DNA of 64,000 nucleotides, from the NCBI GenBank assembly GCA_037443205.1, contig JBBIOU010000010.1:11879-75878 (forward strand), in the 5' to 3' direction. Below, piece after piece: positions 1,876-60,543 of this stretch; within the stretch, counting starts at the first letter, position 1; every line of letters starts with the position of its first letter. The translations under genes and the position numbers were made by a program. Source of the stretch: Flavobacteriales bacterium. GTDB lineage: Bacteria; Bacteroidota; Bacteroidia; Flavobacteriales_D; UBA2798. The notes under the pieces are model-generated. The model was given only the letters and a program-made list of their open reading frames with translations, was not told where the DNA came from and did no database searches.

Positions 1876-4290
1876 ATGAAATCAATAATTTTATCCATTT
1901 TAATTATTCTAAATTCTGCATTAATACAAGCACAAAACTGGACAGGTGCAGTTAGCACAGATTGGAATAATCCTGCCAATTGGTCGTCAACACCTACCAA
2001 TAATACAGCCAAAGTGATTAACCCGGCTAATTACACCGGGGCTGCTCATCATCCTGTAATTTCAAGTAATTCTTCATTTACTCCCGGTACTGTTTCAATA
2101 TTAAATGGCGGACAACTTACCATAAATGCGAATTTATCTACTAACGGCAATGTTACCGTTAGTGATAACAATTCGCAACTTATAGTAAATGCAGGAGTAT
2201 TTGAAGTAGCTGTAAATAATAATGGCAGGTTAATAGTTGAATTAGGCGCTACCATGACAATAAACAATGGTACAATAAATGTTGGTCAACGTTTTATTAG
2301 CGGTGAATACAGTATTGTTACCATGTATAACGGAACAGTTACAACAGGTCAAAGATTATTAATGGATTTAGGAGGAATATTTAATTTTAACGGAGGCAAT
2401 ATTACAGTGGCGCAAACGATGGCGTTAGCTGATGGCAATGTTAATGGTTCTTGTCAGTTTAATATGAATGGCGGTAACCTTACAGTAAATGGCGAAATTG
2501 CTTTAGAAAATGAATTTGGTGTGTATGAGCCTACCGTAACTATTAATGGTGGTACGCTTACTCTAAATGGCGATTTGGTGTGGTTTGGAGAAACTCCGGG
2601 TGCAGGTACCCCAAAATTTATTATGAACGGGGGTACTGCTAACATTAGCGGATTAATTCAAAATATGCCGCTTAGTACGGTAAATATGTATTTAAAATTA
2701 CAAGGTAATGCACAACTTAATTATTCAGGAAATTTAATTGAATCTATCCATCCGCAGGATAGCATTATACAAATTCAAAACAGCCAATTATTTTTAAATA
2801 ATAATCATACTATTAATAATTCCGGTGTAATTTATGCACAAAATGTAAGCACCAACTTTAATACAAATTCAATACTGCAAGGCAATGGACACTATCAGTT
2901 TCATACAGTAGAATTATCTACTGCTAATACAATAAATCAGCAAACTGCTCATGTTTTTATTAGTGGTAACTTAAATGTAAATGGAAATTTCATAACTAAT
3001 AATAATACCGTTACTTTTAACGGAAGTGCAAATCAAACTATTAATGGTAACAATATAAATTTTTATAATTTAACTATAAATAATTCCTCAAGCAATGGAG
3101 TGAGTCTTAATACAACAGTAAATGTTACAGGTGCGCTACAGTTAAACAACGGAAAATTAAACACCTCCAATACGCATATAATAACTATCGAAGATAATGC
3201 CACAGCCACATCCGGAAATATTAATAGTTTTGTTAACGGACCAATAATTAAAAAAGGAGATGATGCATTTGTATTTCCGGTTGGTAAAAATATGCGTTGG
3301 AGAAGATTATCAATAAGTGCTCCTAATACTACTACCGCCTCTTTCAAAGCCGAATATTTTGATAATACCTATAGCCAAATAACACCGGTAAACTCACCAT
3401 TATCTGCCATAAGCAACATTGAACATTGGAATTTGGAAAGATTAAATTCCTCCTCAAACGTTGTAGTAAGCTTATACTGGGAAGATGCATCAGCAAGTGC
3501 AATAACCGATTGCAACGAACTTTCAATTGCACGATGGAATACCAATGCATGGGAAAATGTCCTCTCAACCGCCAATGGTATTTGCAACGGAAATGGCAAT
3601 GGATATATAACCTCCAACAATATTTTAAATGATTTTGGAACATTTACCTTTGGCTTTTATTCTAATGTTACAACGCAAAATATTGATTTGTGCATTGGCG
3701 ACAGTGTAATTGTAGGAAATAATACCTATTATACTTCAGGTACTTACATTAATATATTAACTGATATAAATAATAACGATAGCGTTGTAATTACCAATGT
3801 AAATGTAATTAGCCCGGATACATCAATTGTAATTATTGCAGATACACTGCATGCCGTAAACAGCAATGCAAGCTATCAGTGGGTTGATTGTTCAAATAAT
3901 TTTACCTTAATTCCGGGAGCAACTTCTCAAAATTTTAATCCGCTTATTAGTGGAAATTATGCTGTTATTATTAACCAAAATGGTTGTATAGATACATCGT
4001 CTTGTTATTTTATATCTTTAACATCAATATACCCGGATGAAAATAAAAATGAATTAAAACTTTTTCCAAATCCAATTAAACAAGCAGAAAAGCTTAACCT
4101 ATTAAACGCTGAAAAAATTCTTTGGATAGAAATTTATGATTTAACAGGTAAATTAATTAAAACTATAAATAATGCTCAACACAGTAACAGCATGCAAATA
4201 GATATTAATTTACCCTACAGCAATTTTTACATCATAAAAACTATTGATACCGAAGGATACAATAACCTATTTAAAATTATTATTTTATAG
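1876..4290 (+). CDS. secreted Asn-rich beta-helix-like protein with T9SS C-terminal sorting domain
   Basis: Signal peptide followed by the QNWTG..DWNNPANWS motif. Repeated NGG(T/N)(L/I)T(V/L)NG units. C-terminus LKLFPNPIKQ...IEIYDLTGKLIK... matches the type A T9SS CTD pattern. Confidence 0.85.
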   Translation: MKSIILSILIILNSALIQAQNWTGAVSTDWNNPANWSSTPTNNTAKVINPANYTGAAHHPVISSNSSFTPGTVSILNGGQLTINANLSTNGNVTVSDNNSQLIVNAGVFEVAVNNNGRLIVELGATMTINNGTINVGQRFISGEYSIVTMYNGTVTTGQRLLMDLGGIFNFNGGNITVAQTMALADGNVNGSCQFNMNGGNLTVNGEIALENEFGVYEPTVTINGGTLTLNGDLVWFGETPGAGTPKFIMNGGTANISGLIQNMPLSTVNMYLKLQGNAQLNYSGNLIESIHPQDSIIQIQNSQLFLNNNHTINNSGVIYAQNVSTNFNTNSILQGNGHYQFHTVELSTANTINQQTAHVFISGNLNVNGNFITNNNTVTFNGSANQTINGNNINFYNLTINNSSSNGVSLNTTVNVTGALQLNNGKLNTSNTHIITIEDNATATSGNINSFVNGPIIKKGDDAFVFPVGKNMRWRRLSISAPNTTTASFKAEYFDNTYSQITPVNSPLSAISNIEHWNLERLNSSSNVVVSLYWEDASASAITDCNELSIARWNTNAWENVLSTANGICNGNGNGYITSNNILNDFGTFTFGFYSNVTTQNIDLCIGDSVIVGNNTYYTSGTYINILTDINNNDSVVITNVNVISPDTSIVIIADTLHAVNSNASYQWVDCSNNFTLIPGATSQNFNPLISGNYAVIINQNGCIDTSSCYFISLTSIYPDENKNELKLFPNPIKQAEKLNLLNAEKILWIEIYDLTGKLIKTINNAQHSNSMQIDINLPYSNFYIIKTIDTEGYNNLFKIIIL

Positions 4291-4304
4291 ATAATATATC
4301 ACAA

Positions 4305-4323
4305 ATACGCATTAGTATGCATA
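4305..4323 (+). repeat. degenerate copy of the P1 hairpin module of the 147-nt element
   Basis: ATACGCAT-TAGT-ATGCATA resembles CATTACGCAT-TAGC-ATGCGTAATG of the repeat. It lies 15 nt after the stop codon at 4290. Confidence 0.3.
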
Positions 4324-4506
4324 AAGATCGTATAAATAATATGTGTAAACTCCCTATTTTTAGTAAATTACTAAATTATACATTTACATCAAATCAAAAT
4401 ACTTTCTTTTAATGTTCCTAGGTGTAATGGAGCGTAGCGGAATGCAACCCAAGAACAATGTTTTTTTCTCTATGCTTTACAGGACTGATACCCCGGTACT
4501 GTTCAT

Positions 4507-4653
4507 TTTATCCCGTATTACGTATTAGCATACGTAATGCTTGCCTGATGGCGGATAACCCAAACCCACCCCTTTGCCAAAGCACTCAGTCCGCCTCTGG
4601 CGGAAAATTTGGATTTAATCCAAATTTCTAATGCTTAATTTGGGTTAATTATA
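4507..4653 (+). repeat. 147-nt structured intergenic repeat, copy 1 (candidate ncRNA / 3'UTR element)
   Basis: Aligns end to end with 14653-14799 and the reverse complement of 29843-29989. Same hairpin set: P1 4516-4539, P2 4542-4553, P3 4556-4564/4639-4647, P4 TCCGCC-TCT-GGCGGA, P5 4605-4627. Confidence 0.85.
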
Positions 4654-14652: not shown

Positions 14653-14799
14653 TTTATCACACATTACGCATTAGCATGCGTAATGCTCGCCTGATGGCGG
14701 ATAACCCAAATCCCACAAGACACTCAACACACTCAGTCCGCCTCTGGCGGAAAATTTGGATTTATTTCAAATTCCTAATGCTTAATTTGGGATTATAAT
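14653..14799 (+). repeat. 147-nt structured intergenic repeat, copy 2 (candidate ncRNA / 3'UTR element)
   Basis: P1 14662-14671/14676-14685, P2 14688-14691/14696-14699, P3 14705-14711/14785-14791, P4 14737-14742/14746-14751, P5 14753-14760/14766-14773. Near-identical to the reverse complement of 29843-29989. Confidence 0.85.
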
Positions 14800-14900: not shown

Positions 14901-14975
14901 TGGGAGCAACAGGATTCGAACCTGTGACCCCCTGCTTGTAAGGCAGGTGCTCTGAACCAGCTGAGCTATGCTCCC
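14901..14975 (-). tRNA. tRNA-Val (anticodon TAC)
   Basis: The reverse complement folds as a cloverleaf: acceptor GGGAGCA/TGCTCCC, D stem GCTC/GAGC, anticodon stem CCTGC/GCAGG with loop CTTACAA, T arm ACAGG-TTCGAAT-CCTGT. CCA is not encoded. Confidence 0.95.
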
Positions 14976-29438: not shown

Positions 29439-29780
29439 ATGGGTAATAACAAAAAAAACAGGGTAAATATAGTTTATTCCACCAATCCCGATTTTAAATA
29501 TAGTTATTATGAGGCTCAAGAACCCGAAACACTGGCGCCACAGCAACAAAATTTAAAAATATGGCTAGAACGCAAAGGCGGGGGAAAACTGCTTACTATT
29601 ATAAAAGGTTTTGTAGGTAAAAATGATGATATAGAAAGTTTAGCCAAGGAACTGAAAAAAAAATGCGGTGTGGGCGGTGCCGTTAAAGACGGAGAAATTC
29701 TTATACAGGGCGATGCAAGAGATAAGGTATTAAATATTCTTAGCTCGCTGGGATATCAGGCTAAAAAAGCGGGGGGTTAA
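29439..29780 (+). CDS. SUI1/YciH-family translation initiation factor
   Basis: GKLLTIIKG...LKKKCGVGGAVKDGEILIQGD signature. The start is placed at MGNNKK (29439), because the 29370 start would overlap the divergent gene. Confidence 0.85.
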   Translation: MGNNKKNRVNIVYSTNPDFKYSYYEAQEPETLAPQQQNLKIWLERKGGGKLLTIIKGFVGKNDDIESLAKELKKKCGVGGAVKDGEILIQGDARDKVLNILSSLGYQAKKAGG

Positions 29781-29795
29781 ACTCAATTAACCCCC
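29763..29795 (-). terminator. intrinsic terminator for the minus-strand transcript, embedded in the 3' end of the convergent SUI1 gene
   Basis: Minus strand reads GGGGGTTAA-TTGAGT-TTAACCCCC (9-bp GC-rich stem), then CGC, then TTTTTT. Confidence 0.6.
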
Positions 29796-29842: not shown

Positions 29843-29989
29843 ATTATAAACCCCAATTCAGCATTAGAAATTTGAAATAAATCCAAATTTTCCGCCAGAG
29901 GCGGACTGAGTGTGTTGAGTGTTGTGTGGGATTGGGGTTATCCGCCATCAGGCGAGCATTACGCATGCTAATGCGTAATGTGGGATAAA
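29843..29989 (-). repeat. 147-nt structured intergenic repeat, copy 3 (candidate ncRNA / 3'UTR element)
   Basis: The reverse complement aligns over its full length with 14653-14799. It starts 16 nt after the stop of the minus-strand gene ending at 30006. Confidence 0.85.
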
Positions 29990-30005: not shown

Positions 30006-30716
30006 TTATTTTCTTTCTCCGAATAAACGAAGCAGGGTTAAAAACAGATTGATAAATAATATATACATCTGCAAACCGAAGATAAGTGCAAGCTTAGATG
30101 TTGATTCTCCCTGGTATTCGGCCATCTGGCTCCAGTTTTTAATTTCCTGCATTTTATAAGCTGTTAATCCGGTAAATACAAACACGCCTATGATTGATAT
30201 TATCCAGTCGAGTTTTTCGCTTTGCATAAAAATATTTACTATAGAGGCAATGAATATACCAATAAACACCATATACAATATACTTCCCAGTTTAGTTAAA
30301 TCTGTTTTAGTAAAATAACCCAACAAAGCCATAGCACCATAAGTACCTGCGGTGATGGCAAATACAGAAGCTATTGAACCCAATTCATAAACCAAAAAGA
30401 TAAACCCTAATGAAGCACCTATTAGTACGCTATATAAAATATATAGTGCCAACAATACAACAATTGACAATCTGTTGTATGCCATCTGCATAAGCAGTGC
30501 TAAACCTACCGGGGCAAAAAGTACGATATATCCCAGTGGCGTGAATCCTGTTTCACTGATAAGTAATAAAACAAGATTTAAGTTATGACCGAACAACCAT
30601 GCTACCACACCGGAAATAGCCAGCGCAGCAAACATATAAGAAAAAACATTGGCAATTAGTGCACGCGATTTAGCAACAATTTCGCCTTGCATAGAATCTA
30701 AAGTATTGTAACTCAT
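30006..30716 (-). CDS. Bax inhibitor-1/YccA family membrane protein
   Basis: 236 aa, seven hydrophobic helices, BI-1-type C-terminus (..LFINLFLTLLRLFG). Confidence 0.85.
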   Translation of the reverse strand: MSYNTLDSMQGEIVAKSRALIANVFSYMFAALAISGVVAWLFGHNLNLVLLLISETGFTPLGYIVLFAPVGLALLMQMAYNRLSIVVLLALYILYSVLIGASLGFIFLVYELGSIASVFAITAGTYGAMALLGYFTKTDLTKLGSILYMVFIGIFIASIVNIFMQSEKLDWIISIIGVFVFTGLTAYKMQEIKNWSQMAEYQGESTSKLALIFGLQMYILFINLFLTLLRLFGERK

Positions 30717-30754: not shown

Positions 30755-31480
30755 TTAATCTCTTCGATTATTTAAAAGAGAAATATAATATAATAATGTA
30801 GCCAAAGAACCTACGGCTGCAACCACATAAGTAAGTGCGGCCCAGGTTAATGCATCTTTGGCATTGGCGTGTTCGCTTTTTGTAACTATACCGCGATTAG
30901 TCATCCAGGCCAATGCCCTGCGACTGGCATCAAATTCTACCGGCAGGGTAACAAAACTAAAGAGTGTAAATACACCATAACATCCAATAAAAAGGTAAAT
31001 AATTGTATCTATCGGAATAGTTTTGTATAAAGCGTATCCGCCAAAAATACTTAACAGCAAAATAAAGTTCAGAATTTTACCGCTTACTGCTTGTATGGGC
31101 ACCAAAGCCGAACGCATTTCGAGCATACTGTATTTTTCGGCATGTTGTATGGCATGACCACACTCGTGAGCGGCCACGGCAGCAGCAGCAGCGTTGCGCC
31201 CATGATACACATCGTAGCTTAAATTAACGGTTCTGTTTTGAGGGTTATAATGGTCGGTAAGTTCTCCCTCTACACAAATAACATTAACCCCATAAACACC
31301 ATTATCAGCCAGCATTTTTTCGGCAATTTCTTTACCACTCATTCCATTACTGATGGGTGTTTGCGAATAGCGCTGAAATTTACTTTTTAATGTAAAACTC
31401 ACCACCATTCCAATAAGCATAAATACAATACCAATTAAAAATGCACCGTTTTGCATTAATCCATTCATCTCTGAGTACAT
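30755..31480 (-). CDS. membrane zinc metallopeptidase (neutral zinc metallopeptidase family)
   Basis: HECGHAIQH (HExxH) motif between TM segments. 241 aa. Confidence 0.8.
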   Translation of the reverse strand: MYSEMNGLMQNGAFLIGIVFMLIGMVVSFTLKSKFQRYSQTPISNGMSGKEIAEKMLADNGVYGVNVICVEGELTDHYNPQNRTVNLSYDVYHGRNAAAAAVAAHECGHAIQHAEKYSMLEMRSALVPIQAVSGKILNFILLLSIFGGYALYKTIPIDTIIYLFIGCYGVFTLFSFVTLPVEFDASRRALAWMTNRGIVTKSEHANAKDALTWAALTYVVAAVGSLATLLYYISLLNNRRD

Positions 31481-59324: not shown

Positions 59325-59532
59325 AAATTAACAAGCTGCTAAATTAGAAAAAATGCATTAGATAGTAAAAAATACATTATAAACATACTGTGTATAAGTA
59401 ATTGTATTTCAAAAAGAATATAATATACTAAATTAAACTTACTCATATCTCATTCTTGCCATATAGCCATAAGCTAAATAACAAACACCGAAAAACCGAC
59501 TCAGTTTGCTCCTTACAAAAGTTATAAAGATC

Positions 59533-59556
59533 TCCAAATTTCTACTGAATTTGGGA
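59533..59556 (+). repeat. orphan fragment of the 3' end of the 147-nt element
   Basis: TCCAAATTTCTACTGAATTTGGGA compared with TCCAAATTTCTAATGCTTAATTTGGGT of copy 1. Forms a 7-bp hairpin CCAAATT/AATTTGG. Confidence 0.4.
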
Positions 59557-60543
59557 CTATAGATTATTTAGGGTTGATTTGGCTATTTCAAATTCTGCTA
59601 TCATGCGTTTAATAATGTCGGAACAAGGCAAAACTTCATGAATAAGTTCAACGCTTTGACCGGCACACCATAAAGTTTGATAATTTCCGGGTTTAACGGA
59701 TTTCTCCAGCCTTTTCATGCCTCTAAGCTGAACCAGCATTTTAAAATATTTTTTAGTTTTTGGGTTGGAGGAAAGCAGTTTTTCGAACCAATTTTGCTTG
59801 TACCCTATTTTTTTTGCATAAGGAGTATTAATGATAGTGCAAGGTGTACCGGAAATTTTTTCTGATAATACTATATCGTCTGTTCCTGCAGCTACTATAG
59901 CATTTTTATAATCGTTACTCACTGTAGCTTCAGTGCTGGCTATAAAGCGTGTACCTACTGATACTCCTGCCGCACCTAAAACCAGCATTGACAATATACC
60001 GCTTCCGGTAGCGATGCCGCCTGCTGCAATTACCGGCATATTTTCAAACCTTGCTTTTAATGCCGGTATCAATACCTGTAATGCGTTTTTGCCGGCATGC
60101 CCGCCTGCACCCTGCCCAACTGCAATAAATCCATCGCAACCTAACTCATAACATTTATGTGCATGTTCTATGGTAGTAACATCACAAAATACTTTTGCCC
60201 CATAGCTGTGTGCCTGCCTTATTACCTCAGCAGGGTTTCCTAATGAAGTAATATAAAATGGCACTCGCTTATCAACACAAATTTCTAAATGTTTTTTAAA
60301 ATAAACATTGGTTTTCTGAACAATGATATTCACACCGTATGTACCCTTGTTTATTTGGTTTTTACAAGCATTCAGTTCGTCCAGTATGTTTGACAAATCT
60401 TTTGTATCGCGGTAATTCAGGCTGGGAAAGGCCGCTGCAATACCACTTTGCATACCGGCCATTATCATGGCTTTATTGCTAACCAAAAACATTGGTGCCA
60501 TTATTAGCGGGAAATCAATATTTAATATTTCTTTTAAATTCAA
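59557..60543 (-). CDS. nitronate monooxygenase / FabK-like NAD(P)H-dependent flavin oxidoreductase
   Basis: TIM-barrel NMO pattern: FPLIMAPM, GFIAVGQGAGGH, AAGGIATG. Confidence 0.85.
   Translation of the reverse strand: MNLKEILNIDFPLIMAPMFLVSNKAMIMAGMQSGIAAAFPSLNYRDTKDLSNILDELNACKNQINKGTYGVNIIVQKTNVYFKKHLEICVDKRVPFYITSLGNPAEVIRQAHSYGAKVFCDVTTIEHAHKCYELGCDGFIAVGQGAGGHAGKNALQVLIPALKARFENMPVIAAGGIATGSGILSMLVLGAAGVSVGTRFIASTEATVSNDYKNAIVAAGTDDIVLSEKISGTPCTIINTPYAKKIGYKQNWFEKLLSSNPKTKKYFKMLVQLRGMKRLEKSVKPGNYQTLWCAGQSVELIHEVLPCSDIIKRMIAEFEIAKSTLNNL

Follow-up and report, generated by a model that had tools for sequence, protein, structure and literature searches.

The 64,000-nucleotide (nt) stretch of a Flavobacteriales genome considered here (contig JBBIOU010000010.1, hereafter the window) carries three intact copies of a 147-nt intergenic sequence that folds into a series of hairpins. 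On balance, this unit probably belongs to a small Bacteroidota family of intergenic DNA repeats that are non-coding and rich in hairpins, similar to miniature inverted-repeat transposable elements (MITEs) and of the same general kind as Correia, ERIC, BOX and bacterial interspersed mosaic elements (BIMEs). Copies arise and decay, with intact copies, one relic and one possible fragment coexisting in the 64 kb, and the middle module is exchanged between alleles. In the host species, a foreign 15-nt GC hairpin (P4) would have replaced the 5' arm of an older central hairpin, and P4 may itself be a copy of a mini-element spread over many phyla. The repeat adds a Bacteroidota example to the poorly explained hairpin-rich intergenic repeats, and it provides a rare evolutionary snapshot: one compensatory pair is seen while still mismatched, and strains that are about 99% identical differ in whether they carry an internal module.

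Copies, modules and their variation

The host, a member of Bacteroidota with about 35% GC (33-38%), is known from metagenomes only, and its nearest relative by the Bax1-I protein is only 70% identical. About 82 kb of its genome is covered in total, including some 18 kb added at the window ends. An earlier note, made from the letters of the window, had described three copies built of five helices (P1-P5); the copy coordinates, the helices and all cited base changes are reproduced column by column on the alignment. The features of the repeat, with the modules given in copy 2, are the following.

4507-4653, plus strand: copy 1, the P4-bearing allele; strains L101 and L102 have a 137-nt P4-less allele at the same locus
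4590-4604, plus strand: P4 in copy 1, not present in the orthologous allele of L101 and L102
14653-14799, plus strand: copy 2, between a glycosyltransferase-9 gene (+) and a tRNA gene (-); identical in strain L099
14662-14685, plus strand: P1, a perfect 10-bp palindrome, CATTACGCAT-TAGC-ATGCGTAATG, whose 5' arm lies within the left terminal inverted repeat
14688-14699, plus strand: P2, CGCC-TGAT-GGCG, P4-like when its flanks are included (TCGCC..GGCGGA)
14705-14711, plus strand: P3 5' arm, CCCAAAT
14712-14736, plus strand: unpaired linker, C/A-rich and G-poor, the most variable segment
14737-14751, plus strand: P4 in copy 2, TCCGCC-TCT-GGCGGA, a nested hairpin module of 80% GC
14753-14773, plus strand: P5, an AT-rich hairpin, AAATTTGGA-TTTAT-TTCAAATT, with one G·T pair
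14775-14782, plus strand: orphan 3' arm of the ancestral central hairpin, CTAATGCT, also part of the right terminal inverted repeat
14785-14791, plus strand: P3 3' arm, ATTTGGG
29843-29989, minus strand: copy 3, beginning 17 nt past the Bax1-I stop codon and upstream of the Bax1-I intrinsic terminator
29891-29905, minus strand: P4 in copy 3
29764-29795, minus strand: intrinsic terminator of the Bax1-I gene, a 9-bp stem and T-run downstream of copy 3 and outside the repeat
59422-59564, plus strand: full-length copy in decay, its stems broken, antisense to the two minus-strand genes that flank it
4296-4330, plus strand: tentative fragment of the P1 region (5' module)

Pairwise identity among the three copies is 85%, 86% and 95%, and a covariance model built from the family scores them at 168.4 (copy 1), 178 (copy 2) and 181.5 bits (copy 3). 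The 45-nt P1-P2 core occurs three times at no more than 3 mismatches and in 0 of 100 shuffles. The model check suggested by the earlier note recovers these copies together with the decayed one, and finds no additional intact member in 223 kb. The decayed copy aligns over its full length at 60% identity (nhmmer E 0.003; covariance model 20.9 bits, E 0.015); its GC content is 30%, compared with 41-43% in the intact copies, and 27 of its substitutions run from GC to AT, 13 from AT to GC. The possible fragment, 200 nt upstream of copy 1, matches at about 29 of 35 nt by eye (nhmmer E 3.5).

Every copy is intergenic, and the three intact ones are each flanked by convergent genes; the coding sequence (CDS) stops at 4290, 14350 and 30006 and the gene contexts given earlier check out. 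Copy 1 lies between a gene for a protein with a type IX secretion system tail and a 113-amino-acid (aa) open reading frame (ORF), copy 2 between a family-9 glycosyltransferase gene and a convergent tRNA gene at 14901-14975 (-), and copy 3 between the Bax1-I and SUI1 protein genes. The opposite-strand gene is 43 nt from copy 1 and 102 nt from copy 2, nearer than the "upstream" CDS, which is 217 and 303 nt away.

The build order is a 5' module (P1, P2 and the P3 5' arm), a variable C/A-rich linker, a replaceable central hairpin and a conserved 3' module. Terminal inverted repeats, imperfect and about 24 nt long, bound the unit, TTTATCCCACATTACGCATTAG ... CTAATGCTGAATTGGGGTTTATAAT; the first 25 nt against the reverse complement of the last 25 gives local scores of 10-13, reached by at most 3 of 1,000 shuffles in five of the seven distinct family sequences now known. 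In relatives without P4, the orphan arm CTAATGCT pairs with a AGCATTAG-like sequence sitting at the P4 position.

These relatives come from a metagenome scan with the 19-mer around P2, which is specific to the family. Two are true (L090 and L092), on metagenome contigs unrelated to each other; a third contig, L107, is the L092 locus from another sample. Each has retained P1, P2, the two P3 arms and the 3' block TTCAAAT(T/A)TCTAATG(C/A)TGAATTTGGG, and each is without P4, whose place is taken by CAGCATTAAT in L092 or CATCATTAGA in L090, pairing with a downstream CTAATGCTG or CTAATGATG. Between the two, the long central hairpin shows a G:C to T:A compensation. Since the end modules are kept while the middles differ, the conserved parts of the family are its two end modules, and the middle is replaceable. 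The P1 loop of L090 is reversed (GCTA for TAGC), which is what a flipped DNA palindrome gives. On the L107 contig, about 130 nt downstream of the P4-less member (~760-830), there are two hairpins with the P4 stem and other loops (TCCGCC-TTA-GGCGGA and TCCGCC-TA-GGCGGA); they lie upstream of a methyltransferase/HNH pair.

Variation of the same kind is seen within the host species, in assemblies from other samples that are 99-100% identical to the window. L101 and L102, from two separate samples, are about 99% identical to it over the 3.7-kb copy 1 region, and their copy 1 reads CACTCAG-TATTAGAAGTTTAACGAAGTTC-AAATTTCTAATGCT where the window has CACTCAG-TCCGCCTCTGGCGGAAAATTTGGATTTAATCC-AAATTTCTAATGCT. 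This P4-less allele has a 17-bp central hairpin like that of L092, and copy 2 on L101's own contig carries P4; the presence of the P4 module thus varies at an orthologous site. The window allele of copy 1 has its own P5 variants (TTTAA and TCC) and is therefore neither an assembly chimera nor a simple conversion from copies 2 or 3. The earlier statement that all copies fold in the same way consequently holds for the three copies in the window and fails for the copy 1 allele elsewhere and for both outside relatives, from which P4 is missing.

A second case concerns one base pair of P3 in copy 3. It is C:G in the window, A:T in every other copy and C·T in L084, L085 and L087, where the 5' arm already has C in place of A while the 3' arm has kept its T; the C·T state is the mismatch intermediate of the compensatory change. 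L084 is 99.93% identical to the window, with 13 single-nucleotide polymorphisms (SNPs) in 20.7 kb, 2 of them within the 147 nt, and we estimate at about 2 in 10,000 the chance that any of 13 mutations would both strike the pairing partner and introduce the matching base. Repair of the partner by exactly the matching base implies restoration, through either selection or template switching in a quasi-palindrome. Elsewhere between these two strains, 6 of the 13 SNPs cluster in 115 nt of a Zn-peptidase gene (window 31031-31145), which looks like a short inter-strain recombination tract.

How many copies the genome holds beyond the part covered may be hinted at by assembly breaks. Two independent Logan assemblies end at or just before a repeat, L086 at 10756, 29 nt into copy 3, and L095 at 12888, about 57 nt short of copy 1, as expected if genome-wide copies exceed those in the window. 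No further copy is found in the ~18 kb beyond the window ends or around homologues of the L092 methyltransferase. A small protein gene finds no support: the copies share no ORF, as the 40-aa ORF of copies 2 and 3 has a frameshift in copy 1 and is cut short in members without P4, and its product has no word-sharing protein among 5.8 billion, where spurious ORF products of the other copies are likewise not found.

DNA repeat or dedicated RNA

The central question is what the stems are maintained for. Across the seven sequences, 95% of stem cells are paired, compared with 29-46% when partners are slid; in P1 the figure is 100%, with one compensatory pair and one wobble. Two pairs are truly compensatory, giving a covariation score reached by 1 of 500 shuffles; with seven distinct sequences in all, formal covariation statistics are weak. 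Among the changes reported earlier, P1 C:G in copies 2 and 3 is T:A in copy 1, P3 A:T is C:G in copy 3, copy 2 has an A/A mismatch (14704/14792), G·T pairs occur at 4516/4539, 4542/4553 and 14759/14767, and the C/A-rich central stretch is the most variable segment. One coordinate needs correction: the P3 pairing in copy 3 is real, but the partner of plus-strand G29934 is C29854, not C29954. As the stems are maintained and repaired, we infer that folding of a single strand matters.

Which strand, and whether as DNA or RNA, is less easily read. Four stem changes are one-sided (T4516, which is C in L101; T4542; the P5 G·T in copies 2 and 3; and, in the central hairpin of L101, a T·G). On the strand that the earlier note took as transcribed, each of the four gives G·T and none A·C (p = 0.06), which suggests that one strand folds on its own. 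Such pairs are equally compatible with single-stranded DNA hairpins and with RNA. The argument that this bias favours RNA over a DNA cruciform and fixes the transcribed strand accordingly finds no support, since single-stranded DNA also tolerates G·T, four of four reaches only that p value and both strands fold about equally well (against shuffles, z is -5.0 to -5.9 for the copies and -3.0 to -5.2 for their opposite strands). Nor does the sense orientation of all copies downstream of a CDS carry weight: an element flanked by convergent genes is in sense to one of them whichever way it points, so the observation is automatic and uninformative. In quasi-palindromes, moreover, compensatory changes can arise without selection through template switching.

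Transcription signals are equally sparse. No promoter- or terminator-like signals bound the copies, with the exception of the terminator beyond copy 3. An intrinsic terminator within the repeat was considered and rejected, as no copy contains a GC hairpin with a T-run; P4 is followed by A's. Copy 3, between the stop codon at 30006 and the same-strand Bax1-I terminator, lies inside the Bax1-I 3' untranslated region (UTR) and is the only copy with a clear transcriptional context. Its most plausible role there would be that of a generic structure at the 3' end, protecting or pausing, in the manner of repetitive extragenic palindromes (REPs), BIMEs and Correia elements. The terminator hairpin itself (29771-29795, -) overlaps the final codons and stop of the convergent SUI1 gene (+), and a strain SNP at 29777 falls within it.

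The earlier note had proposed a candidate unclassified structured RNA family. Unclassified it is: an Rfam scan of the whole window at the gathering score yields tRNA only, and a scan of copy 2 with its flanks at E up to 10 gives noise matches on the other strand only. A hammerhead-like reading of CUGAUG in the P2 loop was set aside, the motif being misplaced and Rfam silent. The hairpins are likewise maintained. The part that is less well supported is a dedicated RNA: inverted-repeat ends, a decayed copy, the flipped P1 loop of L090 and a replaceable middle are marks of a DNA repeat or MITE and not of a dedicated RNA gene.

Even so, a dedicated structured RNA (a cis-acting 3' UTR element or a multicopy small RNA made from the strand named earlier, with P1-P5 as its functional fold) deserves weighing, although we consider it unlikely. 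It would account for the maintained hairpins, the two compensatory pairs and the G·U-only changes on one strand, for a compensating second P3 mutation arising within 0.07% divergence, for a 5' module nearly invariant between organisms, for the position of copy 3 within a 3' UTR, and for the sole copy antisense to local transcription being the decayed one. It does not sit well with copies that have no associated promoter or terminator, adjoining genes that are functionally unrelated, an opposite strand that folds as well, or a fold that is inconstant, with P4 missing in alleles and relatives and the central hairpin rebuilt. The reversed L090 loop, the terminal inverted repeats and the relic, typical of DNA repeats, also speak against it, as do the template-switching route to compensation and the lack of the family in the nearest relatives sampled.

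The reading as a MITE-like DNA repeat must in turn face several observations that weigh against it. Over about 50 nt, the 5' modules of different organisms are identical, in settings that differ; this identity, the one-strand G·T bias and the compensatory change within the population could also be explained by selection for a functional RNA, and the covariation itself comes to two pairs in seven sequences. Neither target-site duplications nor sharp ends are seen in copies 1-3, L090 and L092, the ends being fuzzy and AT-rich. In 31 kb from the two closest relatives, whose Bax1-I proteins are 66-70% identical, no copy is present, and no close strain with an empty site was found, as every retrieved strain has all three copies. 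The census covers about 82 kb of the host genome. A phmmer search of 3,267 ORFs from the window and about 700 kb of loci, with IS608 TnpA, IS200 TnpA and Escherichia coli RayT as queries, a weak test, gives no IS200/RAYT-like ORF (RAYT, REP-associated tyrosine transposase). Other results belong beside these: no transposase occurs in the annotated neighbourhoods of the copies (a small strain sample), presence/absence polymorphism concerns the P4 module only and not whole copies, five scans of 2.9 million viral contigs (P1, P2, P4, 3' module and twin hairpin) give zero matches, and a collection of 72,556 plasmids has no match to the element or the twin hairpin. On the DNA-repeat reading, hairpins would be kept for a role either in DNA, when the repeat is mobilised or recombines, or in RNA, when it is co-transcribed at gene ends; Correia, ERIC and REP elements show that the two are compatible.

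Less probable still is a non-autonomous derivative of an HUH (IS200/IS605-type) element, a palindrome-associated transposable element ("PATE") or an orphan guide-RNA scaffold, in which P1 would serve as the left-end hairpin and the central hairpin as the right-end one, both read on one DNA strand. Related hairpin feet (CATTA/TAATGC) near both ends, the lack of target-site duplication, a multi-hairpin length of about 140 nt and strand-specific G·T pairs that suit recognition of single-stranded DNA are what such an element would show. But no TnpA-, RAYT- or TnpB-like ORF is detected in the window or loci (a weak test, with TnpA and RayT queries), and no conserved flanking tetra- or pentanucleotide is seen 5' of copies 1-3. 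Both orientations are present where the sign of the GC skew is constant across the window, against a strict replication-strand bias (n=3), and the copies present are P4-bearing ones, in which the putative right-end hairpin no longer has its 5' arm. A recombination or attachment site (integron attC-like or another site-specific recombinase target) or a bidirectional terminator, suggested by an imperfect palindrome of attC-like size between convergent genes, is largely refuted and highly improbable, as GTTRRRY is absent from the family, RYYYAAC is internal only, the ends have no R'/R'' cores, the annotated neighbourhoods have no cassette array or integrase, and the element has no hairpin with a T-run, P4 running into A's.

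The P4 hairpin beyond the host

At 80% GC in a genome of 33-38% GC, P4 appears, judged by its sequence, foreign to the host repeat. A 20-mer containing it, GTCCGCCTCTGGCGGAAAAT, for which we estimate about 1 chance match in 596 Gb, occurs in more than 83 stretches among the matches listed in a species-representative genome collection of that size. All matches listed are in metagenome-assembled genomes (MAGs) or single-cell genomes, from at least 8 phyla. By record titles these include the candidate phyla radiation (CPR)/Patescibacteria, Omnitrophota, Elusimicrobiota, Planctomycetota, Verrucomicrobiota (with Kiritimatiellia and Lentisphaeria), Dehalococcoidia (Chloroflexota), Bacteroidota, "Gammaproteobacteria" and Bdellovibrionales. 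The flanks are unrelated beyond about 16 nt upstream.

Among the matches listed, 85 sites divide into 44 head-to-head twins and 41 solo hairpins, the latter often after CCTG. The left hairpin of the twins is CCAGCC-NRA-GGCTGG at 16 sites and CCCGCC-NRA-GGCGGG at 10, with covarying A:T or C:G, and the fetched loci hold 16 extra copies of the 13-nt core with different flanks. Twin, solo and hairpin units measure 30, 18 and 15 nt, all multiples of three, and the 30-nt twin has no stop codon in any of six frames (consensus translated by hand). Insertions of both the solo and the twin form are found within conserved proteins: phosphoglycerate kinase (PGK) of L014 has a 10-aa in-frame insert relative to 1vpe and serine hydroxymethyltransferase (SHMT) of L016 a 6-aa one relative to 2dkj, with similar in-frame inserts by inspection in MiaA, a release factor, RecR, aspartate carbamoyltransferase and PheT.

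We therefore entertain, tentatively and with more doubt than belief, the possibility that P4 (TCCGCC-TCT-GGCGGA) is an undescribed cross-phylum mini-element, solo or twin, that has entered intergenic DNA, tRNA-like sequences, repeats and housekeeping genes, is polymorphic here, and has the 147-nt repeat as one of its carriers. Our estimate goes no higher because the element may be described elsewhere and its mobility is read from its distribution and one polymorphic site. No description turned up in the searchable literature, in searches that covered the sequence itself, in-frame CPR palindromes, bacterial double-hairpin elements, Bacteroidetes MITEs, and RAYTs or REP doublets (REPINs) in CPR. 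Rfam returns tRNAs only on 19 loci carrying the 20-mer, and phmmer finds no Y1 transposase near P4 sites, in a weak test.

The carriers themselves are varied. In three tRNA-Met-like 3' halves (L043:6898-6917(-), L079:7176-7195(-) and L040:722-741(-)) the T-loop is split exactly between TTC and AAAT by a twin or solo hairpin (GGTTC, insert, AAATCC), and in L043 and L079 these halves lie about 50 nt downstream of an intact tRNA-Met gene, duplicating its 3' end. Truncated duplicates of tRNA 5' halves beside intact tRNA genes (L068:1499-1518(+) and L071:4642-4661(-)) have the hairpin in place of the D-loop, and the L071 fragment has also received a second, different twin hairpin (CCCCGACGTGAAGTCGGGG...). 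In a Verrucomicrobiota MAG (L039:4392-4589(-) and L083:~1371) the hairpin is part of an 89-nt unit in at least 3 tandem repeats, which also holds a T-arm-like sequence (GGGGTTC...AAATCCCACC).

Other carriers are repeats, among them longer ones specific to one genome, with the hairpin at their core. Saccharibacteria MAG CAYYEK01 has intergenic word-like repeats (CACGAATA.., TACTACTATTACTAC.. and TTAATTGTCAAATG..; L054:3780-4352 and other contigs), and a 109-nt tandem unit there contains the twin hairpin. On two Dehalococcoidia chromosomes (L015, L027, L041, L049, L053 and L070) a longer, conserved repeat, GAGTACACGAAAAAGTAGGG...GCTGACAACGAAGTGCTG..., ends in one or two hairpin copies and is followed by a widespread CTCATCCTGAGCCTGTCGAAGGA-type repeat. 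Omnitrophota MAG JAZDEE01 (L001, L035, L038, L044, L057, L059, L060 and L072) contains a genome-specific repeat of about 130 nt with the twin hairpin at its centre. The 3' flank of that repeat, TTCAAATTTTCCAATGCTCAAATG, resembles the 3' module of the window repeat, TTCAAATTTCTAATGCTGAATTG (0 of 2,000 shuffles reach the score; cmsearch about 20 bits); homology of the two is not established, this being one family among about 50 tested and the resemblance unseen in other lineages.

Comparison with known systems

Bacterial MITEs such as Neisseria Correia elements, enterobacterial ERIC/IRU and pneumococcal RUP share most features of the window repeat: they are 100-160 nt long, non-coding, intergenic and multicopy with decaying copies, have terminal inverted repeats and long and short variants differing by an internal segment, and are folded when transcribed at gene ends. 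The window repeat differs in having no recognisable TA or other target-site duplication and no known cognate transposase, in its lower density (3 intact copies in ~82 kb), in its imperfect inverted repeats (13/17 in the core) and in the nested foreign hairpin. Pneumococcal BOX elements (boxA-boxB-boxC) are modular, intergenic and stably structured, with conserved ends and an exchangeable middle. The modular build is that of the window repeat, whereas sequence similarity is lacking and BOX has no nested pan-phylum hairpin.

With the REPs, BIMEs and REPINs of Enterobacteria and Pseudomonas, which RAYT transposases mobilise, the repeat shares short perfect palindromes (P1 and P4) in mosaics of 100-300 nt, location at convergent gene ends and a proposed RNA role at 3' ends. 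P1 is a 24-nt perfect palindrome, within the 20-40 nt of REP units, P2 and P4 are GC hairpins, and all copies are intergenic at convergent ends; REPs and REP dimers also occur within genes (PMC3733652). In REP families, one palindrome end bears a conserved GTAG or CGTC tag (PMC3733652), whereas GTAG, CTAC, CGTC and GACG are in none of the seven family sequences, and no RAYT was found by phmmer with the three queries given above. For assignment to the MITE class, a target-site duplication, an empty site and a transposase are missing; for the REP class, the tag and the RAYT. One study presents REP/REPIN families as lineage-specific and vertically inherited (10.1101/2024.10.14.618302). The P4 hairpin, in contrast, is identical between phyla, and with REP-like hairpins thought to be lineage-specific, one would not expect a hairpin of 15-20 nt to recur unchanged in many phyla and within essential genes.

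Closer parallels to P4 are the double-hairpin elements (DHEs) of Allomyces mitochondria, yeast GC clusters and Rickettsia palindromic elements (RPEs), which are GC-rich hairpins or double hairpins, encode no enzyme and are inserted between genes, in RNA-gene-like sequences or in frame within genes. One source treats yeast mitochondrial GC clusters as a mobile family (PMC4478555), and RPEs inside genes are documented (PMC3733652). These elements stay in one organelle or genus, and RPEs measure 100-150 nt, whereas P4 is 15 nt long and identical in at least 8 phyla. Like RPEs, intragenic REPs and DHEs, P4 forms an in-frame palindrome in conserved proteins (PGK and SHMT), and its twin is free of stops in six frames. 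If P4 is indeed a mini-element, it would be a bacterial counterpart of the mitochondrial DHEs, moved by a probably host-encoded activity, and the polymorphic host population offers a concrete place to seek the mechanism that moves such mini-hairpins.

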